From: Tubulanus polymorphus
Lineage: Eukaryota; Animalia; Nemertea
Direction of reading: 5' to 3'
DNA: 64,000 nt
Assembly: GCF_964204645.1 (NCBI RefSeq)
Contig: NC_134030.1
Location: 14,260,110-14,324,109, forward strand
Shown here piece after piece: positions 10,857 through 49,651 of this stretch (positions are counted from its first letter, which is position 1; each line of letters opens with the position of its first letter). The notes beneath the pieces were generated by a model that saw only the letters and a program-made list of their open reading frames with translations, was not told where the DNA came from and did no database searches. A program made the position numbers and the translations under genes.

Positions 10857-11471
10857 TCAATTTGTTTCTGAGTTCTCGGTTTTTTCTTCACAATTAATTC
10901 CTTCAATTCTTCCATTTCGCTCATTTATTATACATGTAGAAAAATTTTTACTTTCAATATTTGAAAATGTTATAACTCCAATTGATAATAATGTCATAAA
11001 TCCACCTAATTGAAATGATAAATTTCCAATCCATTTATTTAATTCAGTCATAACTAAATAATAATTTTTTAAATCGAAATATAATTTATTTTCATCTTGA
11101 ATTGGTAGCATATATTTACGTAATTTACTATAACCTTTTACTACATTTTCTGATATCGCGTCATTAATTCTAGCTATTCTCGCAGTTTCATGAATCTTAA
11201 ATAATTTAATAATTTCATCTGATTTCATTGTATCTAATTCATTATAAGTTAAATTTTTACTAATAAAACTTTTACATTTCCCAGATGCAATTAATATTTC
11301 TAAGTGATGTTTGCAATAAATATAATATTCACAATTATTGTTTGTAGTAATATCATTTAAAGCACCATTATTATCTGGTGTTAATTTTGTTTCTGTTATA
11401 CCCAAATCATCCAAAGTTTTTTCAATTGGAACATCACTATTTTTAGATTTTCCTTTCTTTTCACCTCCCAT
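10857..11471 (-). CDS. Polinton hypothetical protein, 204 aa, hydrophobic C-terminal segment (intact copy in left arm)
   Basis: Open ORF with ATAAATG start; near-identical frameshifted copy at 26709-27315 (+). Confidence 0.75.
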   Translation of the reverse strand: MGGEKKGKSKNSDVPIEKTLDDLGITETKLTPDNNGALNDITTNNNCEYYIYCKHHLEILIASGKCKSFISKNLTYNELDTMKSDEIIKLFKIHETARIARINDAISENVVKGYSKLRKYMLPIQDENKLYFDLKNYYLVMTELNKWIGNLSFQLGGFMTLLSIGVITFSNIESKNFSTCIINERNGRIEGINCEEKTENSETN

Positions 11472-11494
11472 TTATATAACAAAAAATTAATTGT

Positions 11495-11780
11495 GTTGTT
11501 GCAACTGATATTTAACTAGAATGTATCTAAAAATATACTAGATTAACAAGCTAGTTGAAATATTATTGTTTCTATTTGATTTTTGTTTCAACTACCAATA
11601 ACTAAAATTTAACTAGAATGTAACTAAAAATATACTAGATTAACAAGCTAGTTGGAATATTATTGTTTTTGTTTATTTCTTGTTGAATTTTATTTGATTT
11701 TTGTTTCAACTACCAATAACTAAAATTTAACTAGAATGTCACTTAAAATATAATAGATTATCAAGATAGTTGAGTTTCGA
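11495..11780. repeat. Short tandem repeats at inner edge of left arm
   Basis: TTTAACTAGAATGTA..AAAATATACTAGATTAACAAGCTAGTTG three times; inverse of 26390-26690. Confidence 0.8.
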
Positions 11781-11971
11781 TAAATTCATATTTAAAGGGG
11801 TGTTGTAATCGAAATAGTAATTTTGACCATTTATTATTTTTCAATTTATCCATATATTTATTGTGTAAATCATGCGGAATAATATCAGTAATTGGTAAAT
11901 CAGGGTTTCAGGCCAGAGGGCGATAGGGCGACACACCACTCATCACCACAAGTAATTTATTTTCTAATAAA

Positions 11972-14900
11972 ATGGGAGACAGTGAGTACCAGACAGAAAA
12001 AAATGATGTTAATGAAAATCAATATTATTGTACATATTGTAAAAAAAAAAATTGATAAATCTCATAAAGCACGACATGAAAAAACTGCAAATCATATAAA
12101 AAATGTTATAGATTTTGAAACTCCAGAAAATTCCAATTAAAGAAAAGAACGATTAGAAAATATGAATGTGGATAAAATAAGATGTGAAGTAATGAATTTA
12201 TAGCAAAAAGGAATTATAAAAGACATCTCGAATCACAAAAACACCATCAAAATTTGAGTAAAAATGTTTTAGGAACAGATTATTTTGATGATAAACCTCA
12301 ACAAGCAAAAAACCAGTTTCAAAAACTAAATCTATTTCAAATAAACCTTACATGGAAAATGTTAGAAATTATATCGATTCACTAGAAATAAAAGATACAA
12401 TTGAAATTTTAGAAACATTACGCAGTAAAATTGGGCCTGCAGCTATTATATTTAGATTTTTTAAAGGAGCAACAATAGAAGATTATAGTAAATTTATTGA
12501 AATCATGGAAAAAATACTAGATTTGGTAACAGATGTTGAATATCCAAAAATTAGTATTTCTGGAAAAGTAAGTTTTATCAAATCAGAAGAAAAAATGGAT
12601 TATAATATTCAAACATACTCTGAAGAAATAATTTCAAAAACACAAATAAAAGAGAAATTAGAAAAAAATATTTCATGAATTTAAACGTCATATTAAGGAA
12701 AGATATTTTGAGAGTCCTGGTTTAACATTGAATGAAATTATATTTTTAGATTTCAATATTTATAATACAAAAAGGAATAAAGCATCAAAAAGTAAAACAA
12801 TGTTTAAAAATGATTCAAACTTTACCACAGAAAAGGATATTTAAGCAACAAGTTATATCAAATTACCATTTACAACAAAAGCAGTAATAAATGTTCAAAA
12901 TGAAGATAATAAATGTTTTCTATGGTCAATTATTAGTTGCTTACATCCAACAGAAGAACATGTTTATAGAATAACAGATTACCGGAAATATGAAACATTA
13001 TATAAAACTGATCAATATCCTGTAACTATAAAAATGATACCTAAAATAGAAAAAGTTGATAATTTAAAAATTAATGTATTCGAATTAATGCAATTACCAG
13101 AGACAAAAGGTGAAAACATTAAAGATTATACATTTTAACAGAATATTATGATGATGAAAATGTTATAGATTTGTTATATTACAAAAACGATGAAAATGAA
13201 CATTATATGTGGTTAAAACAAATAGATTTATTCTTTAGAAGAGGAAGTGATCATCATAATAAAATTTATCTATGTAGAAAATGTTTATCTAAATTTATTA
13301 CTGGGAATGCGTAACTAAAACATAAAGAATTATGTGATAATAAAGATTTTTGTAAATTAATAATGCCAACAAAAAAAGATTGTCAGTTGAAATTTACTAA
13401 TCATAAATTTAAAAATATTGTTCCATTTGTAATTTATTGGGATTTTGAATCGTTGAATAAAGAATTAACTGATCAAGATAGAAAAGAAATATATAATAAA
13501 AAGCAATTTTTAAAATCAATGGATTAAGGAAATGAGCTAAATGAAGATATAATTCAAGACCCACCAATTATAAATACAATTAAAAAGGTTCATCAAAGAG
13601 CTGCTGCTTATGGAATTTATATAAAATCAAATTATCCTGAATTATATGAAAGTCAATATATTTCTTTTAGAGGTGAAGATGTAGTTAATGATTTTTGTAA
13701 TAAAATAATTGAATTAGAAAAAGATTTTGCAAAATTATTAAACAAAAATAAATGTAATATCGTTATGACAAAAGAAGATGAAATTGATTTTAATTATGCA
13801 ACTCATTGTTGTTACTGTGAAAAACGTTTTTATTCATTTGATAAAAATGTTAGAGATCATGATCATTTAAATTCAGAATATCGTGGAGCTGCTCATGAAG
13901 ATTGCAATTTACAAGCTAAGAAAGTTAATTTCGTACCAATATTATTTCATAATTTATCAGGCTATGATACCCATCTATTTATAAAATAATTATCAGGAAA
14001 ATTGGGCGCAATTAATCAAGAAATAGAAGAATATAATGCTATGAATGAAGCAAATGTAAGAAAATATGATTTTAAACTATTAGCTAAAACATCTGAAAAT
14101 TATATTTCATTTCAATTTGGTTGCATTAGATTTTTAGATTCTTATAGATTTCTAACAAGTTCATTAGATAATTTAGCAAAAAGTTTAGTTGATAATGATT
14201 TTATAATGACTCGACATTATTCCCCAAATGAACAAGATTTTAAATCATTGACATATAAAGGCGCAATTCCTTTTCATTTTTCGCAATTCATTTTATAAAA
14301 CACATGATGATTTTAATGTAACAGAATTATTAAAAGAACAATTTTATGATCAATTAAAAGAGGAGTATGTGAAAGATGAAGTGTTTAATAGAACATAAAA
14401 TATTTGGAATCACTTTAAGATAAAAAATCATGGTGAATTAGTAGATTTATACTTAAAATCAGATGTTATGATATTGGCTGACATATTTGAAAATTTTAGA
14501 GAAGTTAATTTAAATCATTTTAATGTTGATCCCTGTTATTGTTATTCAAGTCCTGGTTTAACTTGGCAATGTGGTTTAAATTATACAAATGTAGAATTAG
14601 ATTTATTAAAAGAACCAGACATGGTTTTATTATTTGAAAAATCAATTAGAAGATGAAAATGATGATAAAAGTTATTGGGAAGTGCAATTATGGGTTTAAA
14701 AGATGAAGCACCAATTGGTTATTTCTTTGTAGTTGATTTAGAATATCCTGATAACATAAAGTTTAAAACAAGAAACTGACCATATTGCCCAGAACATTTA
14801 GCCGCAGATGATAGTTATTTAAGTGAATACCAGAAGAAAATAAAACCGAAAGATCATGATTTTACAGAAAAATTAATACTTAATCAAAATAATAAATACA

Positions 14901-16883
14901 ATTATATTGCTCATTATAGAATGTTAAAATCTAAAACAAGGAATGAAATTAAAGAAAGTACATAGATATATTGAATTTAATCAATCGAAGTGGTTTGAAA
15001 AATATATAGATTTTAATACTCAACAGGGAACCATATCAAAAACAGATTTTGAAAAAGATTTCTTCAAATTAATGAATAATAGTTTTTATGGAAAAACATG
15101 TGAAAATATTATAAATAGAAATGATATTGAATCAGTAAATAATTCTGAACGATTAAGACATTTACAATCAAGTCTTAGACAATTAGGAAATAAAAGATTT
15201 GAAGATTATTTAACCGCGGTAAAATTAAAAAGAACGTCAATGAAATTTAATAAACCTATATTCATTGGTTCAACTGTTTTAGAAATATCAGAATTATTAA
15301 TGTATGATTTTTATTATAATGTTTTACAACCACTCTTTGGGGAAAAGCATATTGAAATATTGTATTTTGATTCTGTAACAGCTGATACCCCAATATTATA
15401 AAAATACAATAACCAAATATTAATTAGAAGAATTTCAGAAATAAATCCAAAACAAAATGAACTTTATATTTCGTATGGTGAAAAAGAATTAATACAAATA
15501 AATGGATTAATGGATGTTTGGACAAGAAATGGATGGAAAAAATTAAAGAATATAATTACACATAAAACAAATAAAAAGATTTATAGAGTTGGAACTAAAT
15601 TAGGGTTTGTAGATGTCACTGAAGACCATAGTTTAATTAAACAAAATGGTGATGAAATAAAACCAACTGATATAAAAATTAGAGATGAATTATTACATAA
15701 AAGATTTTTCCAAAGAATGAATCATATGTCATTTGATGAAATAATTGATAACATTTATAATATAGAACCCGACACATTTGAAGAAAAAGAATATTTTATG
15801 AAAGGTTTTTTTATGGGAGATGGTTCAGCAGGTGTGTATAATTATGTTTGGGGTAATAAATATTGTTGGTATTTATGCAATCAAGATTTGAAATTGTTAG
15901 AAAGAATAAAGAAATACTGTGAAGAAGTTTATTCACATAAAACATTTAGAATCATGGATGTTATGAAATCATCAGCAGTTTATAGAATACTCGTGAATAA
16001 CCCCAAAGATTTTGCTACAAAATATAATGATGAATTCCACATTCATGCAATAGTGAAAAGTAATACTTCAACCAAAGAAAAGATAGTTCCAGATTATGTA
16101 TTAAATACAAAATATAATTTTAGCAAATGGTTCTTCATTGGATTCTATGCTGCAGATGGCACTAAAAAATTTATAAAGTATAAAAAGATAACCTTTGCAC
16201 AAAAAGGAAAAGTTGCTATATCAGGATTAAATATATTATGCAATTCATTAGGTTTTAATATGAATATTGAAGATTGATTAAATCTAAACCAAATTGCTTT
16301 AATTTAAGCCATGTAGAAAATGAGTTAACAGAAGAAGTTAAAGATTTATTTGAAATATATAACCCATGAGATTACGTTTATGATTTATCAACTGAAGATG
16401 GAACATTTAACTGTGGATTTCCATTAAAAGCCAAAAATACGGACGCCTACATACTGAAAATCAAGACAAATGACATAACAAAAGACTTAAAAACATTAAA
16501 ACATCATTTTGACTTCAGCAATTATCCAAAAGATCATGAACTATGTAGCAATGATAATAAAACAATTCCTGGTAAATTTACAGATGAATTAGGGAGGATG
16601 AAATGATTGAATTTGTTGGGATAAGAAGTAAAATGTATAGTTATAGAACAAAAGATCATGAAGCTAAAAAGTTAAAAGGAATCACAAAGCATGTGGTTGA
16701 CAAACATATAGAATTTATATTATATTAAGTGTTTACTCAACTCAATAGTTATGAAACATAAAATGAATTGTTTAAGATCACGCGATGTACATTAATGAAG
16801 TTGAAAAAACTAGCTTCAATCCATTCGACGATAAGAGATATATTTTGGATGATGGAATAAAAACATTACCTTATGGCCATTAA
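11972..16883 (+). pseudogene. pPolB: Protein-primed family B DNA polymerase (pPolB), intein-containing, disrupted
   Basis: N-terminal C2H2-like fingers; INVQNEDNKCFLWS; ExoI VIYGDFES; EndoVII-like VRDHDH..YRGAAHEDCN; ExoII FHNLSGYD; ExoIII YLKSDV; motif B FFKLMNNSFYGKT; motif C YFD|TD split by intein; PGKFTDE, RSKMYS, KLKGI, FDDKRY..TLPYGH stop; many stops/frameshifts. Inclusion of the 5' finger region in the same gene is inferred. Confidence 0.93.
15372..16438 (+). mobile_element. Intein with LAGLIDADG homing endonuclease in pPolB motif C
   Basis: Block A SVTADTPIL right after YFD; block B VDVTEDHSL; LAGLIDADG motifs YFMKGFFMGDGS and WFFIGFYAADGT; block F DYVYDLSTEDGTFNCG; block G LKAKN followed by extein TDAY. 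Confidence 0.93.
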
Positions 16884-17111
16884 AAGAGAAAATCAAGATC
16901 ATCATACTCGAAATCACTACTGGTTTCTTCATTTTTATTTAATTGTTTAGGTTCTTCCATTTCATTTTTCTCATTTAAATAAAGTTCTATATTATTCCAC
17001 ATTATCATCTAGCTCTCTTTGTTTCTTTTTGTTCGTTAATTCATCAAATGGAATTATAATATCGATGTTTAAAAAATTTACAATCTTATTTAAACAGAAT
17101 TCATAATTAAT

Positions 17112-18163
17112 TTAATCTGTTATTTTATTATCCACATAATATTTTAATATGTTTGTGAATGTTTCTTTTATATTTTTCATATCTTTTTTTGTTAATTTAG
17201 GTTTTTCATAATAATCGTTTAATAATAAATATAAATACATTTTCTTATTTTTTGTGTCAAATATTAATGGAATAATTGTTTTTATAATATCTTTCTTAAT
17301 TATTTCACCATTTTTATTTTCTATTATTTTCATTTTTTCAATCCATTGCTTATATTCTGGTGTATGATCTTTCATAGAAAATATCTTAAAAATTTCATCT
17401 AGATATTTTAATGTTAATTCTATAAGAATATCTCTAGTTTTTCCATCACCCCATTAATTTCTTTGCCATCCACATTCATTACAAAATATCACAGAATCTT
17501 CTTGTCTTAAGTACTCATAAATACATTGCGGGCATTTTTTTATATCTTGGTAATAGATCTTCATTAAGTTCTTGGTATTTACTTACGTTTTCTTCATGTT
17601 TTATTGTTCTATTATGTAGATTTGAATTACTTGTTGTAATAATCAATTTACAATATTTACAATAATATGTTTTTCTTGCTAATTCATTATATTGTTTTTC
17701 TAACTTTTCAAGTGTTTCTTTATTATCTGGTAACGTTTTCTAATATTTTATTTTTTCTTTCATAAAATTCTGTTTCAAATTTACTAGAAATTTAATCTAT
17801 ATGTACTTTACGAAATTGACGATTCTCCCAATCTTCTATATTTTCGGGGCTATATTTTATTCGACAATACTGATCTTTTATATTATTCTTATCATAGAAT
17901 AAGAAAGGTCTTTTCCAAATAATTTCAGGTTCAGTTTCAAAAGAATTACTATCAATTTCGTTACTATCAACATTAACCATTGAATCATTAATTTTACACT
18001 TCTCTGAATGTTTTTTAACATAATTTCTTGAGAATAATTTATTACAATTTGGGCAGTTTATTTTAGGGGGTTTATAATTTTCATCATGTTTTTTCATATG
18101 TCGAGCCATATTACTTTTTCTTTGAAGTTCACCAGAAATTTCACATGGTATCTTCTCATCCAT
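17112..18163 (-). pseudogene. Polinton zinc-finger hypothetical protein(s), fragmented
   Basis: ORFs 17792-18163 (CPNCNKLFSRNYVKKHSEKC) and 17112-17375; further YYCNICK and CPQC motifs between them; ATAAATG start. Confidence 0.6.
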
Positions 18164-18229
18164 TTATTTAGGAAAAATTTTATTAGAATTAATTTTTAGT
18201 GATGCGAAGTATTTTTTGCGTTATGAATA

Positions 18230-18988
18230 ATGGGTGAATTAAAAGAATATAGAAAATTTGTTGATTCAAGAAGACTTAAAAATTATAAATCTCATAATTT
18301 ACTTGTACAATTAGATAGAGAATTTAAAAATTGTGTAGATTTAAAATTAGTAAATATTAGTTTATGTAGTTCTTTTTATAATATAACTGATAAATCTATT
18401 GATCATAGAGGTTTTGCAGTTATTAATAAGACTAAAAATAAATGGTATCCCCTTTATTTAAAACCAGGGTTATATAATTTAGATACATTATCACAAGAAA
18501 TTAATAGAAAAGACTGGCACAAATTAGGTAGTGATTCCGAATTTAACATTAGATTTTTAAAAAGTGATAGTTCTTATAAAATAAAGATAAGGTTAACTCA
18601 TGGTGAAAAATATAAATTTTTAGTTAAAAAACCTATAGCTAAACTGTTAGGAATTACACCAGATAAACTTTATTCAAATGTTGATGCTACACCAAACTTA
18701 ATACCTTACACACATTTCTATATTTATTGTTATTTAATTGATCCTACAAACACATTCGAAGCAACTAAAGAAACAACTTGTAATTCCAGTATAATAAATA
18801 TTTTACCATTGAAAAATGTTAAACTATTTGGAACACAAATAAATTATAATTTAGCTGAATGTGATTTCAAACCTTGTATTTCACGATTTAATGATTTCAA
18901 ATTAGAAATTAGAAATCAAAATGGATACTTAATTGATTTGAATAACTTTCCTGTGATATATGAATTAGTTATAAGATGTAAAGAATAA
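18230..18988 (+). CDS. Minor capsid protein (penton-like single jelly roll), 252 aa
   Basis: Polinton mCP-like pattern: SFYNI, LKPGLYNL, AKLLGI, FYIYCYLI, IINILP, LEIRNQNGYLIDLNNFPVIYELVI; intact ORF. Confidence 0.7.
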   Translation: MGELKEYRKFVDSRRLKNYKSHNLLVQLDREFKNCVDLKLVNISLCSSFYNITDKSIDHRGFAVINKTKNKWYPLYLKPGLYNLDTLSQEINRKDWHKLGSDSEFNIRFLKSDSSYKIKIRLTHGEKYKFLVKKPIAKLLGITPDKLYSNVDATPNLIPYTHFYIYCYLIDPTNTFEATKETTCNSSIINILPLKNVKLFGTQINYNLAECDFKPCISRFNDFKLEIRNQNGYLIDLNNFPVIYELVIRCKE

Positions 18989-19004
18989 TTTTTTCACTAT
19001 ATAA

Positions 19005-19340
19005 ATGAATATAAAAGTAGGACCGAGTATATGTTTTGGATTTGATTTTAAACGTGAGAAAGAAATGAAATTTAACATTAATGATGTAATAACACATATC
19101 AAAAATATTGCATTTTCTAATGAAACAACATTCGAGTATGAAACAACAATAAATAAAGAAACTTTTAATGTAGAAAAGATAACTGATTTAATTAGAGGGT
19201 TATTAACATTTTATGAATTAGATGAAGATTAAATTATTGATGATATTAAACAAATAACAACTGAAATATATAAAAATGAAACTAATAATATTATCAATGT
19301 TGAAATAATTATAACTAAGTTAACTAAATATTTTGAAGAT
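19005..19340 (+). pseudogene. Polinton hypothetical protein, probably frameshifted after 19232
   Basis: ORF 19005-19232 with ATAAATG start; coding-like sequence continues to the next gene. Confidence 0.5.
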
Positions 19341-19361
19341 AGTAATTTTTTTTATTAATAA

Positions 19362-19589
19362 ATGAGTGATAATAAGTGGATACTAACTGGATTATATAAT
19401 GGTGCCTTACTATCAGTTGGAACTGTTGGTTATTCAATGGTATTAAAAAAGTATTTAAAATGGGAAGTGTTAATGTTGATAGATTTATATAAATGATATT
19501 TTGAAATTAACATGAGCAGTAACTTTATCTAATTTAACAATTGATTTTTTGGAAAAACAAAAATATATTCCTCCCATATAAATGCATAA
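19362..19589 (+). pseudogene. Small hydrophobic Polinton protein, frameshifted
   Basis: ATAAATG start; MSDNKWILTGLYNGALLSVGTVGYSMVLKK; not in ORF track because of disruption. Confidence 0.55.
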
Positions 19590-19605
19590 TTTTTTTGCTA
19601 AATAA

Positions 19606-20022
19606 ATGGCTTCTGCAGTTATAACTATTATAGGATCGGCAATTGTTAACGCGTTAGCATTTACTGGTGGTGGATATTTATTTAAACATATTGATAAAAA
19701 TAGTTCATTAGGAGAACAAAGAAGAGATAATTTAGCGTTAGAGAAATATAATAAAGCTGCAGAAGAATATAGAGAAAAGAGGCAAAACTATATGGATTAC
19801 ATCAATAAAGAATTATATAATCAGAAAATTACACATAGAGATTTCCAATCAGTCGATGAAGCTATGAGTTTATATAACGCAGTAACAAATCGTGAAAAAT
19901 TACATCTATATAAACCTAAATTGTCAGATTATTATACACGAAGTAAAGAACAACAGAAATATGAAATGATTTGGATTTTAGGTGGAACAGTTATTGTATT
20001 ATTTGTTGCATATATTTACTAA
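19606..20022 (+). CDS. Polinton hypothetical membrane protein, 138 aa
   Basis: Hydrophobic N-terminus (IIGSAIVNALAFTGGGYLF), coiled-coil middle, C-terminal TM; ATAAATG start. Confidence 0.75.
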   Translation: MASAVITIIGSAIVNALAFTGGGYLFKHIDKNSSLGEQRRDNLALEKYNKAAEEYREKRQNYMDYINKELYNQKITHRDFQSVDEAMSLYNAVTNREKLHLYKPKLSDYYTRSKEQQKYEMIWILGGTVIVLFVAYIY

Positions 20023-20045
20023 TTAGTAATTTCTTTTCTAAATAA

Positions 20046-20490
20046 ATGGTTGATGAAGTTGATAATATTGATATTATTCCTCATGATATAAATAAAACTA
20101 AATTAAAATTATATTTGGAAAAACAAATATTAGAATTTGAAAATGATTTTAAAGTTAAAAAGAAAAAATATTTAAAAAGTAAAATTATATACTATTTTAT
20201 TATAAGTAGTTCAGTTACAATTAGTCCTGTAATAACATTTCTAGCATTATTCTCACCATTCACACCTTTGGCTATCTCAATTGGAACTTTAGGTTTAAGT
20301 TCAAGTGTATTAACCGGCAGAAGTTCAAAATTAAATATAAAAAGTAAAAAGTCTAAGTTAAAGAAAAAATAAAATCTTATATAAAAGAAATTAATGAATT
20401 AAAAAATACCTTTGGTATATAATAAGTTTAAATGGTAATATAACAGTTGAAGAACAAGATGAATTATTAAAAGAATTAGTAAATTATTAA
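20046..20490 (+). pseudogene. Polinton two-TM hypothetical protein, frameshifted near 20372
   Basis: ORF 20046-20372 with two adjacent hydrophobic helices; ATAAATG start. Confidence 0.6.
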
Positions 20491-20509
20491 TTTTTTTATT
20501 ATATAAAAA

Positions 20510-21959
20510 ATGGTAGATAGTTTTCCAAAAGCTTTCCAATACAATAAATCAATTAAATATAATATTCCAGCAATAAATTTTAGTAAAGATATTTCATATA
20601 GAAATGAAGTTTTAAATTCATTAATTGATTTAGATATTTATGTTACTAAAACTAATAATTTTAATGCAAAGATGGAAAATATATTTCATGTATATTTAAT
20701 TAATTTAAAAAAGATGAAAGATGAAAAACAATGGTTAATAAAATCTAATATGAAGTATTGGCAGAACCAATTACTTTTTGCATTTTATTATGCAACAACA
20801 GGATGTGGAATAAGTTGGAATGATCATTTGAACAATTCTAAATATAAATTAATTCAGAGTTTATTTAGATTCCATACTTATTTTCAAATAAGATTAGTAT
20901 TAAATGAATTAGAGACTCCTTTGCCAGGATCTAGATATTTTAAAGAATTAGATAATAATATTAACTCATCAAAGTTTTATAAAAATTTGTATTGAATTTA
21001 ATATAGATATAAATCATTCTGATTTTAGAACAAAAATTGGAACAATAAGATCACTTCCTTGCCCTAAAAATGTTGCAGCATATTGTAGACTTCCCATACC
21101 ATCTAATATTTTTTATAATATCTATAATCATAAATTAGGTTATGTTTAAATAGAAACTAGGGATTTAGAAACAATAAATTTCAATCAATTACCGAAATTC
21201 TATGATAATTTAAAACAAGAAAACAATAATGGTTGGGTTTATTTCATTTTAGAAAATAGTGAAGGTTTTATTAAATCGGATATGAAAAGAATAAATCAAT
21301 CAATTAGAACTTATTTGATATGTATCCTAGGTGCTCAAGTTGAAACAAGATCCCCGATAATTGGAAATTTAAATACATCATTTGATACACAAAAACAATT
21401 TAAAGTTTTATTTGAAGATTCCATTCATAATGATGAAAATAGTTCGGTTCCAGAAAACATAGTTAGGTACCAAAATTATATAGATAAATCTCATGTAAGA
21501 CTAAATTATTGTATAGGTCCTCATTTATTAATTATTTCCGATGATTTAATATTAAAAATGGGAAATATGATTGGTTATAATAATTTGATTAAAACTGCAA
21601 CAATAAATAATAAGTTTGGATTAAATGATATAAATAAAAAGATTATTACTACTCCAAAACTAATTAAAGGTGAAAAAATTAAAAAACATATTCAATCAAC
21701 AGAAACTAAAACTAAAAATAATAAATTAAATAATTATTCTAAAATAAAAGATTACAATACATCAGAAAATATAAAAACTGATATTATCCAACATGATGTG
21801 ATTAAAACTAATAATGATAATAAATCCCATGAAAATACTAAATTAGCTATAACTTGTATAGAAATTGTAATAGGAGGAATATTATATTTTAAATTTTTTA
21901 ATTATATAAATGGATGTAGAAGTGGGAGAAGATGGATCCTTTTGATGAACCTGGTATAA
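20510..21959 (+). pseudogene. Polinton conserved hypothetical protein with C-terminal TM, split
   Basis: ORFs 20510-20995 (WQNQLLFAFYYATTGCGISW..FRFHTYFQIR) and 21282-21959 (IRTYLICILGAQVETR). Confidence 0.65.
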
Positions 21960-23350
21960 CTGAAGAACAACCACCTGATTTTGATGAAAGAAGTTTTAAT
22001 GACGGTAATGAGCCAGAATATAATAATAAATTTGCAGATAGTGGTTTTAATGATAATATAATAACAACAGGCGATTTTGATAGAAGAGCTGGACGGAGAA
22101 TAAATATTGAAAATGAAAATCCAGATTTAGTAAGACAGAATTTAGAATATAATGAATATAAATAATTTTAAACCTATATTTGAAAAATCTGGATATAATA
22201 TAAATGATAGCGGTGCCAGTTATTAAGTACAAGAATTAAAATCTTTAGATGGTGAATATTACTATCATTTGAAAGATGATTATTATATTAATATCACTTA
22301 TAAAAATCAAAATAAAATATTAGCAGAATCAACTTTGAGTAATTTTGAACCATCTACAATTAAAAGAATAAGTAATAGTAATGAAATAGAAAATGTTACA
22401 CAAGAAGAAATAAATCAAAATAAAAGAATATTTAAACAAAGAATTAATGACATCGAAACAATCAATAATAATTTAGAAACAGAAACAACTTCTGAACAGA
22501 ATATAACTTCCAAAACTAGTAAAATTAAATCAAATAAAGTTCCAATTGAAAACTTTTACCGAATGGGTTACTAGATGCAACAGATCAAGAATTAGAAGGA
22601 TTAGATATATTTTCTGGTAAAACAATTAGAGAAATTATTAGTATAAGACTTGCATCTGATAAAAATGCGCACGATAAAAGTATAAGAGATTTTAAAATTA
22701 GAACTTTAGAAAAAGATAGAACTGATAAAATAAAAGAAATAAAACAATTAAAATTAGATAGAGATAATACAGTTATTAAAGAAATCAAATTTAAAAAAAG
22801 AAATGCATATTTAGAAAAAGAAAAAGATGATTTAGAATATAACATAGAATTTCAGAAAGAAGAAATTGAATTATTAAAAAAATCATATGATTATAATATT
22901 AATTGATTAAAAGTTATTTTTAAAGATTTGTTGATAAAACCAAAATCTGAAATATCATTAAACGATAGAATAAGATTATTATTTAAGTTAGAAGGTATAA
23001 ACATTCTTTCAATTCTAACAGCTGTTACTATGTTATTTACAACAATTGGTTTAGCAATATCAAATTCTTTGAAATCTACTCCTACTCCCAATAAACCGGA
23101 TAAACCCCCGAATGATAATTCTATACAAGATAAAGTTAAAGATGGTTTAAAGAAATTAGCAAAATATTTATGGGAACTATCTAAAAAATCTGCTGCAGCT
23201 TTACCCGGAATTATTGCAACAATTGTTGGTTTTGTTTTAAAATCTGTGGGGAATATTCTTAACTTTGCTGCTGAACATATTATCTTATTTTTAATTACAG
23301 TTGTAAGTGCTATTATTTTTGGGTTAGTGAATATGATCAAAAATAAATGA
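21910..23350 (+). pseudogene. Long acidic/coiled-coil Polinton protein with C-terminal TM helices, fragmented
   Basis: ATAAATG at 21910; fragments 21932-22165, 22269-22574, 22928-23350 (three hydrophobic segments, Pro-rich linker). Confidence 0.6.
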
Positions 23351-23370
23351 TTAATTTTTTTGTTAAATAA

Positions 23371-24625
23371 ATGAGTGGGAGTTATATAAATCCTTCTAAG
23401 AATTCTAGAATATCTAATGCTATTAAAGCGGAGAGATCTCATATCATTACTCATAACCCTTCTAATATTAATCCTGATGAAACTTTATATGTTAGAATCC
23501 CGAGATTAAATCAAAATACTTTTTATGTTCCAAATAGTATTTATTTATCAGCTGATATAAAAGTAACTGGTCATGATAACAATTATGTTGTCGATAATGT
23601 TGGAAGATATTTGATTGAAGAATTAACTATAAAGATTGGACCAGAAACAGTTTTATCATTAGATGATTATAATTTATTTATGCATTATAAAGATTTATGG
23701 TTAGCAAAAGAAAATAGAAATAATATGATATTTCAAGGCATCCAATCAGAATACCAAAATAGATTAAGATCAGAAGCTAATGATGCAGTAGTAGATAATT
23801 TACAGATTTAGTACAGATAATTTGATAAAAAAGATTTATGGAAGCAAATATCAAATTCCATTAGAGTTTGAATTGATAGATAATAATGCACCTTTGTATA
23901 AATACGCAATTCAAGAAGATATTACATTCGAAATAACATTTGCTCCTGTTAATGAAATTGTGCTATCTAACGTTGTTAAAGATATGGGTTATAAATTATC
24001 GAATATATGTTTAGAATATGATACAGTAACTGATGAAAATATTTCAAGCATAATTCAAACTCAATACAATCAAGGATTTTCATTATTATATGATTATATT
24101 GATAAATTTAAAACTGTAACTATTAATGCAAATGATGAAATAATTAATGAGAATATTAACTTCCCAAGAAGATCTATTAAAAGTATGTTAATATTTTTTA
24201 CCATTGCAACATATTGTAATGGTGCAATAAATGATGATAATTATTATAATCCTGAAATATCAAAGGTAGAAATAACTATTGAAGGTATAGCTAATAAATT
24301 ATTTTGCCAAGGAATGAGAATGATTGATCAATGGCCAGATATTAGAAAACATTTTATGAATGAAAAAGTAAAATCATCTGAAAATTGTAATATTAATCAA
24401 AATGATTATTATACCGGCAATAAATATGCACTATGGTTAGATTTTAGAATAACAGAGGATAATTCATTACATGGTTCTGGGAAAAAACGACATAATACAA
24501 AAGATGGAATACAATTATTCATGAAAAAGAAAAAAGGAATCAAAGATTTCAAAATGCAGATTTATATTATATCTGACGCCCGATTAAATTTTATAAATTT
24601 TCAATTCGATAGTATTCAATATTAG
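23371..24625 (+). pseudogene. Major capsid protein (double jelly roll), one frameshift near 23810
   Basis: ITHNPSNINPDETLYVRIP..NVGRYLIEELTIKI..YKDLW, then NICLEYD, INENINFPRRSIK, YYNPEISKVEITIEG, ALWLDFR; ~415 aa combined; position next to integrase and ATPase. Confidence 0.72.
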
Positions 24626-24655
24626 AAATATAAAGTTCAAATTAACGATATATAA

Positions 24656-25766
24656 ATGGGGGATAAAAAAAACTCGAAATACTGAAGAACAATATCTAAG
24701 AAATTTATATTATAATCCTGAGAGTTCGGTTGCTTATTCTTCTGTAAAAAAACATATGGAGTCAAGTCAAACACGATCACAACAATTAGATAAGATAATC
24801 CCACAAAATTGAGTTAAATATAAAGATATAAATGAATTTATGTTAGAACAACCAACATATACAACACATAAAAAAATTGTTAGAAAATATAAAACTCGTA
24901 AAACAATGGTACGTTATGTAGATCAACAGTGGCAACGAGATTTAATTGATATGAAAAATGTTAAGAAAGATAATGATGATTATTGGTGGATATTAAATAT
25001 AATTGATATTTTTAGTCGTTATGTATGGAGCTTCCCACTTTACAGAAAAGATGCTGTACAAACATCAAATGTTTTAAGAAAATTTCTTTCGGATGATAAA
25101 CTAAAACCAGAAAAAATACAATTTGATGATGGAAAAGAATTTGATAATTCACTTGTTCATGAACTCTTAGATAATCATAATATTAAATATTTTTCAACAT
25201 AATCGGATAAAAAAGCAGCAGTTGTTGAACGATTTAATAGAACATTGAGAACAAGAATGTGGAAATATTTTACAGCAAATAATACTTGAATGGATTGATG
25301 TTTTACCAAAATTGAAAAAAGGTTATAATAATTCTTATCATTCTTCTATTGGAATGAAACCTATTGGTGCTAGAAAATCTGAAAATGCTGAAATTGTTTG
25401 GATTAATTTATATTGAGCATTTCTTGTTTTGGTGAACCTAAATTTAAAGTAGGTAAAAATGTTAGAATTTATAAGTATAAAAAGATATTTGACAAAGGAT
25501 ACGATCGAAATTTTACTAGTGAAATATATAAAATAAAAAAGGTAATAATAACAAAACCATGTGTCTAAAATTAGAAGATTTAGATGGTGAAGAAGTTGAT
25601 GGATATTTTTATGAAGAAGAATTAAGTTTAAACTACTGAAAATCTAGAACAAGAATATAAAATTGAAAAAGTATTAAAAACAAAAACTGTTAATAGAAAA
25701 AAATATTCTTTAGTAAAATGGGTTGGATGGCCAGATAAATTCAATGAATGGATAATTATCGAGTAA
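24656..25766 (+). pseudogene. Retroviral-like (RVE) integrase with C-terminal chromodomain
   Basis: YYNP, QWQRDLIDM, IDIFSRY, IQFDDGKEF, VVERFNRTL, YNNSYHSSIGMKP, FKVG, FYEEEL, YKIEKVL..LVKWVGWPDKFNEWI; stops and frameshifts. Confidence 0.92.
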
Positions 25767-25782
25767 AATTAAAACTATATAA

Positions 25783-26408
25783 ATGAATAAGGAATTATTT
25801 ATATTTGAGCCTCATAATATGTTAATTTCTGGTGTAACAAATTGTGGAAAAACTAATTTTATATTGAATTTATTAGAAACTATCTATAAAAACTATTTTG
25901 ATAATATAGTATTATTTTGTCCAACATATGAATTTAATCAAACTTATGATAGAAATATAACTAGAAATAATAAATTTATTGTATCAAATCCTAAACAGTA
26001 AAAGAAAATTTAGATAATTGTATTAAAATAGCAATTGATATTTATAAAGGATCAAATACATTATTCATTATAGATGATTGTGCAAATTTACATGATTCAA
26101 AAATTAGAGATAGTGAATTATGTTATTTAGCGTTCTCTGGATGACATTTTGGGATAACAACTTGGGTTTTAAATCAAAAATATAAATGAATTGTTAAAGA
26201 TTTTAGGGAGAATATTAGATTTTTAGTATTATTCTACAATAAAGATAGGAAATCGATGAAAAATGCGCTTGAGGAAAATGATATTATTCCACATGATTTA
26301 CACAATGAATATATGGATAAATTAAAAAATAATAAAAGATCAAAATTAATATTTCGATTACAACGCCCATTTAAATATGAATTTGTTTTAACTCAACTAG
26401 CTTGTTAA
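25783..26408 (+). pseudogene. Genome packaging ATPase (A32/FtsK-like)
   Basis: Walker A ISGVTNCGKT, Walker B LFIIDD, SG*HFGITTWVLNQKY (Arg of GRH mutated to stop); frameshift near 26000. Confidence 0.9.
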
Positions 26409-26708
26409 TCCAGTATATTTTAGTCACATTCTAGTTAAATTTTAGTTATTGGCATTTCAAACAAAAAAAAATAAATAAAAACAACAATATTTTAACTAGC
26501 CTGTTAATCTAGTATATTTGTAGTTACATTCTAGTTGAATTCTAGTTATTGGTAATTTAAACAAAAATCAAATAAAATTCAACAAAAAATAAATAAAAAC
26601 AACAATATTTCAACTAGCTTGTTAATCTAGTATATTTTTAGTTACATTCTAGTTAAATTCTAGTTGAATTCTAGTTGCAACAACAAAACTAATTTGTTGC
26701 TTATATAA

Positions 26709-27315
26709 ATGGGAGGTGAAAAGAAAATAAAATCTAAAAATAGTGATGTTCCAATTGAAAAAACTTTGGATGATTTAGGTATAACAGAAACAAAATTAGC
26801 GTCAGATAATAATGGTGCTTTAAATGATATTACTACAAACAATAATTATGAATATTATCTTTATTGCAAACATCAATTAGAAATATTAATAGCAACTGGG
26901 AAATGTAAAAGTTTATTAGTAAATATTAAACTTATAATGAATTAGATACAATGAAATCAGATGAAATTATTAAATTATTTAAGATTTATGAAACTGCGAG
27001 AATAGCTAGAATTAATGATGCGATATCAGAAAATGTAGTAAAAGGTCATAGTAAATTATGTAATTATGTGCTGCCAATTCAAGATGAAAATAGATTATAT
27101 TCCGATTTAAAAATGATTATTTAGTTATGACCGAATTAAATAAATGGATAGGATATTTATCATTTCAATTAGGTGGATTTATGACGCTATTATCAACTGG
27201 AGTTATAACATTTTCAAATATCGAAAGTAAGAATTTTTCCACAATAAATGAGCGAAGTGGAAGAGGTGAAAGAATTAACTGTGAAGAAAAAACCGAGAAC
27301 TCAGAAACAAATTGA
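26709..27315 (+). pseudogene. Frameshifted copy of hypothetical protein 10857-11471
   Basis: ORFs 26709-26945 and 27127-27315 match the left copy. Confidence 0.8.
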
Positions 27316-27590
27316 ATGGTCTCGGCAATTAGGAATTAAATCACAGCAATATAAAAGCTGTAAAAGAAAAAATAAGTAATAAAAATGTTAATGAAAATGG
27401 TGAAAATATTGTTATTTCTACTCCTTCTAATAATAGAATATTTGATAAATATCTACATTTTGCAACTGGATTTGTAATTGTATTCATTTTGATTGGGTGT
27501 AGTTGGTATAAGAAATCAAATAAAATTTATGATATTGATAATTCTGAAACTACTAAAACTACCAAAATTCACAATAAAAAAATGGATTAA
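27248..27590 (+). pseudogene. Small basic Polinton protein with TM segment, frameshifted (inverse copy ~10577-10924)
   Basis: ATAAATG start; MSEVEEVKELTVKKKPRTQKQIEWSRQLGIKS..KYLHFATGFVIVFILIG. Confidence 0.55.
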
Positions 27591-27741
27591 TATTTTAGAA
27601 AAAAAGCAAAAAAAATAATTTCATTTTCAATTAATTAAATATCTCACTACTTTTGTCTATCTATGCGGAGCAATTAAATTATCCAGTGAGTCATTTCGGA
27701 TTCTTAATATTTAATTAATTTTATTATCAATTTATTTTTTT

Positions 27742-28069
27742 TAATCAACAATTTCTAAATCATGATGACCGTCTTCATTTTTCCCATGGTAAATTATTTT
27801 AAATCCTTCTAAATCTTTTAATTCCTCTGTACTCAATGAAACCCATTTATCAGGTAAAAATATTTTAAATTCTCGCGTTGTACTAACATTACAGTAACTT
27901 AAATTTGCTGATATTTTAACTCAATGTTTAGTTTTTATCTTTTCTAATTTTAAAATTTTGTGTTTAATTTCTTTTGTAACATCAACTAACTTTTTTATTT
28001 CAAATTGTTTTTTTTTGCAGGTGTAATTCTGTTATTTATTGCCGCTAAGAATGCTTTTCTATCTCCCAT
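27742..28069 (-). pseudogene. Small Polinton protein (~108 aa), beta-rich, function unknown
   Basis: MGDRKAFLAAINNRI..KKLVDVTKEIKHKILKLEKIKTK..FKIFLPDKW..KIIYHGK..LEIVD; one frameshift and one stop. Confidence 0.65.
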
Positions 28070-28153
28070 TTATTAAAAAAAAATTACTTGTGGTGATGAG
28101 CGGTGTGTCGTACTCTCGTACTCTGGTATGAAACTCTGATATTCCAATTACTG

Positions 28154-28848
28154 TTGGATATATGTCGTTCTAGATCAAAGGTCGAATGGTCATAAAAAAC
28201 TAATATTAAAAGTAATTTAAAACTATAATATATTTTCATAGCCGTGTGTATTTTATATTATAAATAAATATTTATTCTAAAATATTAATAATTTTAATTT
28301 TAAAAGCATATTGTATTAAATCATTTGGTCACGTCGCTCCGCTCCGCTCCCAATTGATTAAATTACAATACACAATAAAGAATATATTCATATAATCAAA
28401 TATATTCTAATAATAATAATTTTTCTATTATATAATCTAAAATACACACGGCTCATATATATCATAGTTTTAAATTACTTTTAATATTTGTTTTTTTATG
28501 AGCTCAATCTTTCAACCTTTAATGTAGAACAACATATATCCAATTACTCTAATATTCTTATATATGAAAATCATATTTATGAAAATTTATTATAAGAATA
28601 TATTTGATTATATGAATATATGTTATATGTAATTAAATCAATTGGGAGCGGAGCGAAGCGGAGCGAAGCGGAGCGAAGCGACGTGACCAATTGATTTTAT
28701 ACAATATGCCTTTAAAATTAAAATTGTTAATATTTTAGAATTATGATTATTATTTTTGATTAAGTAATTATTAATGATTAATTATTATTAATTATTATTT
28801 ATAATATAAAATACACACGGCTATGAAAATATATTATAGTTTTTAATT
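28154..28848. repeat. Nested AT-rich palindromes (fold-back region)
   Basis: 28154-28260 inverted at 28435-28543; 28220-28410 inverted at 28590-28848; related to 49208-49510. Confidence 0.85.
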
Positions 28849-29140
28849 AGGGTTTTCTGTTTCATCACAGAAAACCCTATTGAGATTCGCGTGTTTCTTC
28901 TTATTAGGGTTTTATGTTACATCACAGAAAACCCTATTGAGATTCGCGTGTTTCTTATTAGGGTTTTCTGTTACATCACAGAAAACCCTATTGAGATTCG
29001 CGTGTTTCTTATTATTATTAGGGTTTTCTGTTACATCACAGAAAACCATATTGAGATTCGCGTGTTTCTTATTATTAGGGTTTTCTGTTATTTCACAGAA
29101 AACCCTATTGATATCCGCGTGATTATTATTATTATTATTT
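28848..29140 (+). repeat. Five tandem copies (~55-60 bp) of the HINE-A 5' hairpin
   Basis: AGGGTTTTCTGTTACATCACAGAAAACCCTATTGAGATTCGCGTGTTTCTT(ATT)n at ~28849, 28906, 28960, 29020, 29077. Confidence 0.92.
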
Positions 29141-34225: not shown

Positions 34226-34226
34226 T

Positions 34227-39045: not shown

Positions 39046-39046
39046 T

Positions 39047-43135: not shown

Positions 43136-43432
43136 GGTTTTGTCTCCCGCGACAATTCATTATTCTGGTTTTGTCGCACGCAACAATTCAATATTTTGTT
43201 TTTGTCGTCCGCGACAATTCATTATTTTGGTTTTATCGCCGCGACAATTCAATATTTTGGTTTTAACGCCCGCGACAATTTATTATTGTGGTTTTATCGC
43301 CCGCGACAATTCATTATTTTGGTTTTATCGCCCGCGACAATTCATTATTTTTGTTTTGTCGCCCGTGACAATTCAATATTATGGTTTTGTCACCCGCGAC
43401 AATTCATAATTTTGGTTTTGTCACCCGTGGTT
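43136..43432. repeat. 31-bp minisatellite
   Basis: Same consensus. Confidence 0.95.
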
Positions 43433-45151: not shown

Positions 45152-45370
45152 TAATTTTGGTTTTGTCGCCCGCGACAATTCATTATTTTGGTTTTATCGC
45201 CCGCGACAATTCATTATTTTGGTTTTATCGTCCGCGACAATTCATTAATTTGGTCTTGTCACCCGCGACAAATCAATATTTTGGTTTTGTCGCCCATGAC
45301 AATTCAATATTTCGGTTTTTATCGCCCGCGACAATTCATTATTTTGGTTTTATCGCCCGCGACAATTCTT
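45152..45370. repeat. 31-bp minisatellite
   Basis: Same consensus. Confidence 0.95.
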
Positions 45371-45371
45371 T

Positions 45372-46626
45372 TTCAGTCCACTTGGGACTTTAGTCCCAGC
45401 GGGCTATTGTGTTCACTTTTCGTCCGTCTGTCCCTCCATAGACGGAATCCAGTTATTTTGGGAAGTTTTGAAGACGCTTCAAGGTAATGTCTTGATATTT
45501 GGTTTGTACATGTATCTACCCTAGACACATCGTCAGCCCAAAAACAGGCCCTGTCAGATTCAAGATGGCCGACTGGCAGCCATTGTTGTTTGCCAAAATC
45601 AGCACTTTTTAAACATTTTCGAAGGTTTCGTGGGAAATTTTGAAGACGCTTCGATCAATTACCTTGATCTTTCGTTTATATTTGAATCTACCAAAGGCCA
45701 ATCAGCATAAGAAAATTGGGTCGATCTGACTCAAGATGGCCGTCCTATGACCTTTTTAGTGCCCAAAAATGTAAATTTTGGCCAGAATTCTAGGTCCTGT
45801 AGCTTCCTATTGGTTTGCCATTTTTCATTGCAATTGCTGATGGGTATTCCTTATAGAGGGATGTTATATACCTGGGACAGGTATTTTGATCAGCCAATTA
45901 TGACGCAATTGGCGGCCATCTTGGTGTCATCAGTACTCATTCGTAGGTGGGAAAAAGTTTTTCCACATTAAATTGATACCTAAGCATATTGTGTTACTAT
46001 ATTCAATTGGAAAGTTGCAGCCCATAACGTGTTCTATGATTTTGGTGAGTTTCAAGGTCATTGGTTTTTGTATGTGGCCATCAGGGGGCGTTGAATAATA
46101 CAATAACTTAGTATTGCTATATTTGTACCAAGGCATATTTTGTTACCATGATCAATTGCAAAGTTGTAGTTTATGACATCGTCTATGATTGTGGTGAGTT
46201 TTTAAGGACATTAGTTATTCCATATAGTCACCAGGGGGCGTTGAATAGTAGAATGGCTTAGTATTTCCTTATTAGATTGGTACCTAGGCATAGTTTGTTA
46301 CTATGATCAATTGCAAAGTTGTATTTCATGACATGTACTACGATTGGGGTGAGTTTTAAGGTCATTGGGTTTTGCATATGGTCACCAGGGGGCGTTGAAT
46401 AGTAGAATAACTTAGTATTTCCATATTAAATTGGTAACGAGGCATATTTTGTTATCACAATCGATTACAAAATCATAGCTGCTCACATGTTCTATGATTG
46501 TGGTGGGTTTCAAGGTCATTGGTTTTTGTATATTGTCACTAGAGGGCGTTATGTATTGAAATTGTTAGATTGTTGAGCATTTGAAACCACTTCCCAAGTG
46601 AGCATGGTGTCCCTGGACCCCTAGTT
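45372..46626 (+). mobile_element. Nested HINE-B copy 4 (one fewer 155-bp unit)
   Basis: Same termini as copies 1-2. Confidence 0.85.
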
Positions 46627-46862
46627 TGGTTTTGTCGCCCGCGACAATTCATTATTTTGGTTTTGTCGTCCGCGACAATTCATTATTTTGGTGTTATCGC
46701 CCGCGACAATTCAATATTTTGGTTTTATCGCCCCCGACAATTCATTATTTTGGTTTTATCGCCCGCGACAATTCATTATTTTTGTTTTGTCGCCCGTGAC
46801 AATTCAATATTTCGGTTTTGTCACCCGCGACAATTCATAATTTTGGTTTTGTCACCCGTGGT
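46627..46862. repeat. 31-bp minisatellite
   Basis: Same consensus. Confidence 0.95.
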
Positions 46863-47243
46863 TTTGCCGGAACATTAAGTTTTTTGGTCGAACAGTGTGT
46901 TAAGGTCGTTTTGGAAATTTACTCGGTCTTGTATATTTTGGATTACTGTGTATGTCATTTGTCAGGACATTAAACAGAAGACGACTTAGGATACTACCTT
47001 GCGTGACTCCACTAGTTAGACCGTCTCATTCCAAGATGAGGCGTTCCGTTGATTTCGGTTACAAGTTTCCGTTCAGAGATAACTGCTGAGCCATTTGGGT
47101 GACCATCATTGATACTGTTTCCTAATAGCCTGTTTAGTAATGGCTGATGTTGAGCCTTATCAAATGCTTTGTTGAAATCCACCGTTGAACAGGATTCTAA
47201 GACTGTGCAGGAAACCCGTTATCGCTGCTTTGCAGCTATATTT

Positions 47244-47785
47244 AGATTTGATTTTATTTTCAAGAGGTCTAAAATTTTCCAATTCCAAATAAGTTTTTTA
47301 TTGTATTCATCATTCATGTTAAATTTAGATATTGGTAAGGTATGATCAATATGAAAATAATCTCCATAATTATCTATATTCATGTGACTATCGAATTGAA
47401 ATATAATCCATGATTTGAGAAATTTATCTGTACAACCCAACAAATTAGATAGTGTTTCTGAATGTGTTTCTTTGTTGAATAATTGTGTTAATCTAGATCT
47501 TAAGCATTGTTTCAATCTAAAATTAAGATCTGTTTTATATCTTTCTCTCATATATTCTGTCATATAATCATTATAAGCTTCCCTATTATTTTCTCGGTAT
47601 TGTTTGGCATATAGTTTAATACAAGTTTTACAGCAATATTGAAAACCATCTTTGCTAATCTTACGCTTACTAAATTCTGTTATAGCTAATTTATCTAATT
47701 CACATTTAGAACACTTCTTATAGTATATATTTATGACACCAGTGTTATTTGTAATATTGATAGTTTGTGGTTGTTCTGGTTCCAT
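47244..47785 (-). pseudogene. Zinc-ribbon plus HNH (His-Me finger) endonuclease, copy 1, C-terminus damaged
   Basis: CSKC..CKTC, DLNFRLKQCLRSRL, LGC, NYGDYFHIDHTLP; the last codons of ORF 47219-47785 come from the HINE-A end. Confidence 0.75.
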
Positions 47786-48130
47786 TTATTATACATATTT
47801 TTTTACTAAATTGATTTTAGAAGTTATTCATTTATATGTTATTCAATGATTTAAATATGAATCATTTCAATCACACTTTACTAACACTTTTAATGTTTAA
47901 AAATCTAACTCATACAAATATAAATATTAAAATATGTTTCAAATATATCTATATATCTATTCTATAAGAGCTACCCTCCGCCCTCTGGTATGAAAGCCTA
48001 CTTTTCTAATTACTTATATGTTATTCATGTAAATTATGTTTATATATATGATTATTTTAAGAGTAAAAGGGGAATGTGGCTTTCAGGTTAAAAGTTGAAG
48101 GGGCGAGTGAGTAAAAAATGAAAATAACAA

Positions 48131-48180
48131 TAATTTCTAGTTGAATTAGGAGTGTGCGCGACTAATTCAACTGGAAATTA
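48131..48180 (-). terminator. 19-bp stem hairpin directly downstream of HNH copy 2 stop codon
   Basis: TAATTTCTAGTTGAATTAG-12 nt-CTAATTCAACTGGAAATTA, one mismatch; function inferred. Confidence 0.4.
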
Positions 48181-48183
48181 TTT

Positions 48184-48741
48184 TTATTTTTTAGATTTAA
48201 TTATGTTTTCCTTCTTTTCTAAAGGTCTTAAATTTCTCCAACTCCATATTAGCTTCTTTTTATAATCATCACTCATGTCAAATTTAGAAATCGGCAACAC
48301 ATGATCAATATGAAAGTATTCGCCATAATTATCTATATTCATTTTTTCGTCGAATTGATATATTATCCATGATTTTAAGAATTCATCTGAACAACCCAAG
48401 AAATTAGATAGTGTTTCTGAATGTGTTTCTTTGTTGAATAATTGTGTTAATCTAGATCTTAAGCATTGTTTCAACCTAAAATTAAGATCTGTTTGATATC
48501 TTTCTCTCATATATTCTGTCATATAATCATTATAAGCTTCTCTATGATCTACTCGATATTGTTTGGTATATAGTTTAGTACAAGTTTTACAGCAATATTG
48601 AAAACCATCTTTGCTAATCTTACGCTTACTAAATTCTGTAAATGGTTTACCTAATTCACACTTAGAACACTTCTTGTAGTATATATTTATAACACCAGTG
48701 TTATTTGTAATATTGATAGTTTGTGGTTGTTCTGGTTCCAT
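48184..48741 (-). CDS. Zinc-ribbon plus HNH (His-Me finger) endonuclease, copy 2, intact 185 aa
   Basis: CxxC..CxxC, NYGEYFHIDHVLPISKF..WRNLRPLEKKENIIKS; pattern typical of giant-virus/phage HNH nucleases. Confidence 0.8.
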   Translation of the reverse strand: MEPEQPQTINITNNTGVINIYYKKCSKCELGKPFTEFSKRKISKDGFQYCCKTCTKLYTKQYRVDHREAYNDYMTEYMRERYQTDLNFRLKQCLRSRLTQLFNKETHSETLSNFLGCSDEFLKSWIIYQFDEKMNIDNYGEYFHIDHVLPISKFDMSDDYKKKLIWSWRNLRPLEKKENIIKSKK

Positions 48742-49188: not shown

Positions 49189-49207
49189 GAAACGACTGAA
49201 CATGGTT

Positions 49208-49510: not shown

Positions 49511-49651
49511 GGCCTGAACCAACTAAACCCCTATTACTGACGACGACGACGACAGTGCTGGTTGTGGTGGCGGCGACAGCGACAATGACGATGAGAATGA
49601 TGACGGACGGGGAGTGACTGATTCAAAAGATTACAGAGTTTTGGAGAGAAT

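Follow-up and report, generated by a model that had tools for sequence, protein, structure and literature searches.

A lineage-wide TAAATG start signal in Polintons and its likeness to poxvirus late promoters

What transcribes the genes of an integrated Polinton when nearly all of them begin at one and the same motif? The question is raised by a 64,000-nucleotide (nt) stretch of the Tubulanus polymorphus genome (NC_134030.1, positions 14,260,110 to 14,324,109 of the forward strand; the window), which holds a decayed element of the Maverick/Polinton type. A preliminary description of the window had noted ATAAATG across the start codons, likened it to the poxvirus late initiator and proposed that the element may be transcribed by a cytoplasmic large DNA virus, much as a virophage depends on its helper.

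The start signal in the window and across Polinton lineages

The TAAATG start signal is real and lineage-wide. In the window, ATAAATG is present at all 16 starts for which it had been reported, each time with the ATG on the base given. Four of the 16 are not independent (10924 and 11471 duplicate 27248 and 26709, and 47785 and 48741 are paralogues), and the independent set consists of 12 main-element starts and one HNH-type start. When the first methionine of intact relatives' open reading frames (ORFs) was projected onto the window by tblastn, it fell exactly on 19005, 19606, 20046, 20510, 25783, 26709, 27248, 10924 and 11471, at most one codon away at 18230, 19362 and 23371, and more loosely at 24656, 18163, 28069, 47785 and 48741; N-terminal homology thus fixes 12 of the 19 starts considered to within one codon. 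The remaining two, 21910 and 11972, have no N-terminal match and were set by position and by similarity judged by eye.

Between 11886 and 28190, ATAAATG occurs at 12/15 starts and at 16/640 other ATGs (Fisher p 1e-15), and at least four T residues lie in -15 to -10 at 12 of the 15 starts as compared to 1 of 30 non-start TAAATGs, so both the enrichment and the upstream T-tract hold. The near variants are also as first described: TAAAATG at 11972, TAAAAATG at 20510 and AATAATG at 18230. The orthologues of the latter two genes in L001, a related locus, have the exact TAAATG. Because reads from other copies of the element differ at two variant starts, in the length of the A-run at one and, at the other, in the upstream sequence itself, which is unrelated yet likewise closes with the motif (315 reads), these variants look copy-specific. 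TAAAATG also serves as initiator in the intermediate promoter of vaccinia G8R (PMC12722222), and one guess is that the window polymerase start could be read as an intermediate-type initiator.

The same comparison was extended to other Polintons with a quick maximum-likelihood tree of capsid proteins from the best 80 of 180 confirmed metagenome loci and three genome-bin loci, in which the window falls in a 20-row clade (support 98). TAAATG is found at 58/69 called ORF starts in this clade (15 loci, none dropped) vs. 6/355 in 55 outgroup loci, 13 of which are AT-rich and show it at 1/49 starts. When GC content is matched (26–44%), the counts are 48/58 for the lineage and 1/72 for the outgroup, and the motif is kept in loci of 40–44% GC (L006, L007). 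Nor is this an ordinary Kozak context, as T occupies -3 in 88% of lineage starts whereas A does so in 82% of AT-rich outgroup starts; G is found at +4 in 61% of lineage starts. These counts indicate an inherited motif that does not depend on base composition and that runs counter to the Kozak rule at -3.

Two further branches have the motif (L021/L079, 14/16; L071/L078, 5/6). They share an unresolved fork of the tree with six loci that do not (L015, L036, L054, L055, L069 and L073; 0/37), and a single origin is therefore not established. For sequence profiles we pooled 18 loci, without L002, which nearly duplicates L003, or the frameshifted L014 (0/2), and with L060 added by identity and the two further branches added after their motif had been seen. 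TAAATG stands at 75/88 starts in this pool vs. 117/2848 other ATGs, and at 104/1690 first ATGs after a stop, a control for bias of the ORF caller. The motif is present alongside a different type of polymerase in L021, whose pPolB (protein-primed polymerase; 8186-12253) gives no tblastn match to that of the window while its capsid group and motif (12/14) are the same; the motif thus follows the capsid module. Start-codon context separates Polinton lineages where gene content does not.

Other start contexts, judged by eye, recur in the sister lineages L069, L073, L015, L076, L036 and L054, among them TATAATG in L069/L073 and TATAG or TATAC near the start in L015 and L054; possibly these are the signals of other helpers. 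A sister Polinton without TAAATG (L054:6543-7052, L055:4427-4936) shows a weak match to the late transcription factor family Pox_VLTF3 (E 6e-4, below the cut-off).

Which polymerase would read the signal

Upstream of the motif, the pooled lineage starts have an A-run at -18 to -16, a T-run at -15 to -12 and a freer spacer, with T peaking at 87% at -12 and standing at ∼76% at -13 (9 and 10 nt upstream of TAAAT). Poxvirus late promoters (vaccinia, mpox; PMC11980589, PMC5294985) likewise have TAAATG over the start codon and a T-rich core ∼9–11 nt upstream of TAAAT. We compiled 174 distinct TAAATG starts among 409 ORFs from 18 of 41 fetched poxvirus loci of divergent lineages; as orthologues from one genome region, these are not independent points. 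Their T peak lies at -13 (71%), in agreement with the conserved T published for vaccinia late promoters ten nt upstream of TAAAT(G) (PMC11980589). The T profiles of the two sets correlate (r 0.79, permutation p 0.001), and G at +4 is similarly frequent (67% vs. 64%). Under a matrix trained on poxvirus starts alone, lineage starts score a mean z of 1.15 (n 75) and the window's 12 score 1.55, as compared to -0.05 for 115 lineage non-start TAAATGs and -0.18 for 58 TAAATG starts of 15 other IMG/VR viruses, a comparison group that was picked by pattern among the matches listed and that barely samples the relevant invertebrate viruses. Removing the starts that carry the searched pattern leaves 1.22 (n 60) for the lineage vs. 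-0.37 (n 54) for the other viruses, and dropping the four closest loci gives 1.39. The lineage nevertheless differs from poxvirus late promoters in its T peak (-12 vs. -13) and its stronger A/T preference at -6 to -4; its motif sits on ∼85% of genes, whereas the poxvirus late promoter marks one temporal class, and its promoter function is predicted from sequence.

It is likely that these promoters are read by the RNA polymerase of some helper, and we favor, at a probability of about 0.6, the more specific reading that they are late promoters for the polymerase of a poxvirus-type helper and that the element leads a virophage-like life. The element would be a satellite resting integrated in the host genome, and its two-part signal (A-run, T-run, 6–7 nt spacer, TAAATG) would work as a late promoter when a poxvirus-type cytoplasmic virus co-infects. 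Poxvirus polymerase recognizes TAAA at the start site and slips, which yields a 5′ poly(A) leader (PMC12917281, PMC6211774). A helper polymerase doing the same within TAAAT would keep the T at -3 out of the mRNA, and we propose that such an arrangement explains both the fixed spacing and the tolerance of an anti-Kozak base. Expression would be late and inside the helper's factory, with replication by the element's own pPolB, packaging by its own capsid and ATPase and integration by its own integrase; the compartment shared with a large DNA virus would also be an entry route for the intein in its polymerase. We count for helper dependence that no RNA polymerase is among the element's genes; Pfam scans of ORFs from the window and the lineage, where most loci are partial, found no such family.

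Virophages bear the late promoters of their helpers, and integrated copies of Mavirus are reactivated by the helper (PMC6723459). Like the element, Mavirus and Sputnik are small capsid-encoding DNAs in which most or all genes are preceded by helper-type late promoters, and Mavirus also has a DNA polymerase and an integrase and integrates (PMC6723459); however, their helpers are mimiviruses in protists, whereas the case at hand is a Polinton with a pox-type motif in what is probably an animal host, and no helper was found. Polinton-like viruses (PLVs) have been found in entomopoxvirus occlusion bodies, and these Polinton-type elements were proposed as poxvirus hyperparasites in animals (Barth et al. 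2024, PMC11296320). They were tied to the poxvirus by this co-occurrence and not by promoters, the words "promoter," "motif" and "intein" being absent from the main text; the likeness is one of description, and AHEV_PLV1, which has a protease and no integrase, is unlike the window element. We found no publication on pox-type promoters of Polintons by title or start of abstract, in a search whose coverage excluded most subscription journals.

Two arguments of the preliminary description did not survive. Intergenic gaps are indeed short, but they are not special to the lineage (median 24.5 nt over 54 gaps vs. 7 nt over 191 outgroup gaps) and thus do not argue against ordinary promoters. The early terminator TTTTTNT is depleted no more than TTTTTN[ACG] (0.50 vs. 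0.59 of expectation), and the T-tract is better read as a promoter core. What stands of the virophage-like reading is a real, lineage-specific motif with the two-part spacing of the pox type.

Several observations weigh against it. Nuclear transposition accounts more easily for hundreds of integrated copies, and no helper virus was found. The poxvirus set is chordopoxviral and includes no entomopoxvirus, and the lineage T peak lies one base nearer the start. TAAATG starts occur in other large DNA viruses (L131, 9/15; L084, 4/10; both selected by pattern among the matches listed), and a second Polinton, L116, has TAAATG at 7/7 starts without the pox-like upstream profile (z 0.26). No poxvirus protein from the 18 poxvirus loci (∼20 kb each, part of each genome) matches any Polinton locus or the window at E 1e-3, no donor could be named for the dNK of L001, and the nearest relatives of the intein are not poxviral. 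A single weak poxvirus-protein match (E 0.013) is in an outgroup locus. L116 itself (IMG/VR, 9 kb) is a Polinton-type element with ATPase, integrase and polymerase-like ORFs and no pox-like T-run.

Of the other explanations, the one that fares best keeps the mechanism and replaces the poxvirus by a different cytoplasmic or nucleo-cytoplasmic DNA helper that brings an RNA polymerase of its own, whether an iridovirus, an asfarvirus-like or egovirus-like virus or an element of linear-plasmid type. TAAATG stands at the starts of part of the genes in other IMG/VR large DNA viruses, and the yeast cytoplasmic linear plasmids pGKL1/2 resemble the lineage in having a TAAAN initiator, at which slippage makes their 5′ poly(A) leaders (PMC6211774), so such a helper is conceivable; the intein family also resides in giant-virus-type polymerases. 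However, the T-run is missing from TAAATG starts in the other sampled viruses, as their negative z above indicates, and the iridovirus and ascovirus motifs reviewed in PMC5294985 differ. Unlike the lineage, in whose ORFs none was found, pGKL1/2 encode an RNA polymerase of their own (PMC6211774). An egovirus preprint links pox relatives to protist polintons via KilA, not promoters (10.1101/2024.03.23.586382). On balance we consider a non-pox helper unlikely.

Less likely still is a nuclear route in which host RNA polymerase II uses the A/T-run and TAAAT as a compact core promoter, perhaps together with a zinc-finger factor encoded by the element; the pox likeness would then be convergent. In its favor are the element's integration and multiple copies, zinc-finger genes private to the lineage, and TATAAA as part of many motif instances. 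A TATA box, however, places the transcription start ∼25–30 nt downstream, which here would fall past the ATG, and a transcript that included the T at -3 would offer a weak context for translation initiation. Animal sister Polintons also lack the motif. Downstream of stop codons, AATAAA occurs about as often as expected in the lineage (15/82 vs. 14.0) and some two-fold above expectation in AT-rich outgroup loci (11/40 vs. 5.7), which speaks weakly against processing of lineage 3′ ends by the host.

A translation or 3′-processing signal is improbable, whether the motif couples stop and start (TAA-ATG), overlaps the AATAAA poly(A) signal of the gene before it or guards the start with an in-frame stop. 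The TAA is in frame with the ATG, many window instances read AATAAATG, and the G at +4 would suit such a role; yet the TAA is the stop of the upstream gene in only 4/75 cases and the motif is present at 18/20 divergently transcribed genes, for which reason we rejected coupling and poly(A)-signal overlap. In L021 the ATG follows CTAA, GTAA or TTAA, which shows that AATAAA can be dispensed with, and the fixed T-run at -12/-13 would be left unexplained. Chance or an AT-rich Kozak context, which a GC content of ∼23% might favor, is rejected by the window and GC-matched counts and has next to no probability.

On the poxvirus-type helper reading, a wider proposal is tentative and falls somewhat short of even odds: that a widespread endogenous lineage of animal Polintons consists of provirophages whose helpers are invertebrate poxviruses of a group not yet discovered, with the helper's transcription signals recorded in the Polinton promoters; that sister lineages whose fixed start motif differs follow different helpers; and that gene-start motifs can predict the helpers of Polintons at large. 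If true, poxvirus-like viruses would be expected in hosts where none are known, and the integrated-virophage lifestyle, with a possible antiviral role, would extend from protists to animals. No virions of animal Mavericks/Polintons have been seen (bioRxiv 10.64898/2026.06.19.733378), and a lineage-wide pox-type promoter makes their mode of expression directly testable.

The element, its intein and its surroundings

The element is a Maverick/Polinton, with pPolB, rve integrase, double jelly-roll capsid and A32 ATPase all present beside some ten other genes. It lies in an AT-rich island of ∼20–27% GC at 11–29 kb of the window, with surroundings of 32–42% GC and a host of ∼38%. The features are as follows.

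8464-8943, inverted orientation: third element fragment, with a terminal gene homologue.
10589..11886, minus strand: inverted fragment of a second copy, duplicating ∼26280-27530; starts 11471 and 10924.
11886..28850, no strand: main decayed Polinton/Maverick-type element, ∼23% GC overall; most genes are interrupted by stops or frameshifts.
11972..16880, plus strand: pPolB with intein, a broken copy (Pfam DNA_pol_B_2, E 2.5e-4; Endonuclease_7).
15372..16438, plus strand: intein with LAGLIDADG domain, itself broken, sitting between D and TD of polymerase motif C.
17112..18163, minus strand: fragmented zinc-finger gene, ATAAATG at 18163, divergent from 18230.
18230..18988, plus strand: conserved 252-aa gene with variant start, in a family of 29 ORFs across loci.
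19005..23350, plus strand: six co-directional genes, ATAAATG at 19005, 19362, 19606, 20046 and 21910, variant at 20510.
23371..24625, plus strand: double jelly-roll major capsid protein, ATAAATG start, single frameshift, 70% to P0001.
24656..25751, plus strand: broken retroviral-type integrase, ATAAATG start (Pfam rve, E 6e-10).
25783..26408, plus strand: broken A32-type packaging ATPase, ATAAATG start (Pfam Pox_A32, E 1e-6).
26709..27590, plus strand: two small conserved genes, ATAAATG at 26709 and 27248, the second overlapping the end of the first.
27744..28069, minus strand: inward-facing terminal gene, its ATAAATG start within the inverted repeat that also holds the polymerase start.
28059..28153, no strand: remnant terminal inverted repeat, 97 bp, 84.5% to 11886-11982.
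28170..28530, no strand: imperfect AT-rich palindrome at the end of the element, with another copy at 49200-49515.
47219..48741, minus strand: fragment of a further copy with two paralogous zinc-finger/HNH-type genes, ATAAATG at 47785 and 48741, which have homologues in five lineage loci.

The window polymerase matches outgroup pPolBs down to E 2e-111 (tblastn). The capsid relative P0001 has a confident predicted model (pLDDT 90) with Foldseek matches to capsid proteins (E 1e-19), and the product of 18230-18988 is probably a minor capsid protein, judging from size and conservation. The orthologue of the terminal gene has a poor model (pLDDT 51) and no fold match, and the L003 homologue of the genes at 47219..48741 matches Pfam HNH (E 0.0055). 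Mavericks, Polintons and adintoviruses (PMC8502044; bioRxiv 10.64898/2026.06.19.733378) share with the element its pPolB, rve integrase, A32 ATPase, double jelly-roll capsid and inverted repeats; the lineage is unlike them in its pPolB intein, its TAAATG starts and the lack of a detected protease, and "promoter" and "intein" are absent from the main texts of these two sources. The adenovirus-like maturation protease typical of group 1 had no Pfam match among the window pieces, where the copy is decayed, or the scanned non-core ORFs of L001, which is partial. No match was given by an Rfam scan, nothing informative by sequence searches of the PDB, and neither longer capsid-related proteins nor capsid relatives in IMG/VR were found. 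The sole named eukaryote among the capsid relatives is a bivalve, in the outgroup clade, which together with the flanking satellites and env-bearing retroelement makes an animal host probable. One cluster (P0007) holds a lineage capsid protein filed publicly under several Bartonella genomes, on contigs of 0.5–1.6 kb that are probably contamination.

The intein is genuine, with a Ser start, a terminal Asn and the LAGLIDADG domain at motif C, an insertion we take to be of the "pol-c" class of family-B polymerases. An empty site is seen in L006, and P0088, another Polinton-type polymerase fragment, has the same intein (74%), which is thus not confined to the window copy. Among 1,689 relatives at E 1e-3, the best 150 mostly have a YGD/TDS site (by pattern), and 29 of 34 scanned match PF00136 (RNA-primed family-B polymerases), the other five being short and matching nothing. 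The intein had been suggested to have come through a large virus, and its membership of a giant-virus polymerase family fits contact with large DNA viruses; the tree, in which the window intein is placed without support, names no donor or helper.

The element is a multi-copy family, given that 65,929 reads from 1.9 Gb of one host whole-genome shotgun run map to 18.8 kb of it, mostly at 90–95% identity or less. Its left end is fused to another copy, so a target-site duplication cannot be read. The two palindromes (310–360 nt, near-perfect ∼100-nt arms, asymmetric center; fold z -11.5 at 28170-28530 and -17.0 at 49200-49515) align best with each other in opposite orientation and have no match in related loci; they are either a hairpin-like element end or a small fold-back element. 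Flip-flop ends, considered on the basis of 243 strand-switching reads, were rejected, since mapping between near-identical palindrome arms explains those reads. Beyond the second palindrome lies a retroelement with long terminal repeats (49827-57626; 284-nt repeats at 97%) that has gag, protease and an env-like gene, and no reverse transcriptase among its scanned ORFs. As a marker of the host, the env-like gene gave atlas matches below 0.9, which amount to a lead. Large 31-bp and 12-bp tandem arrays and repeated blocks of several kb occupy 29100-47100 and 7340-8300.

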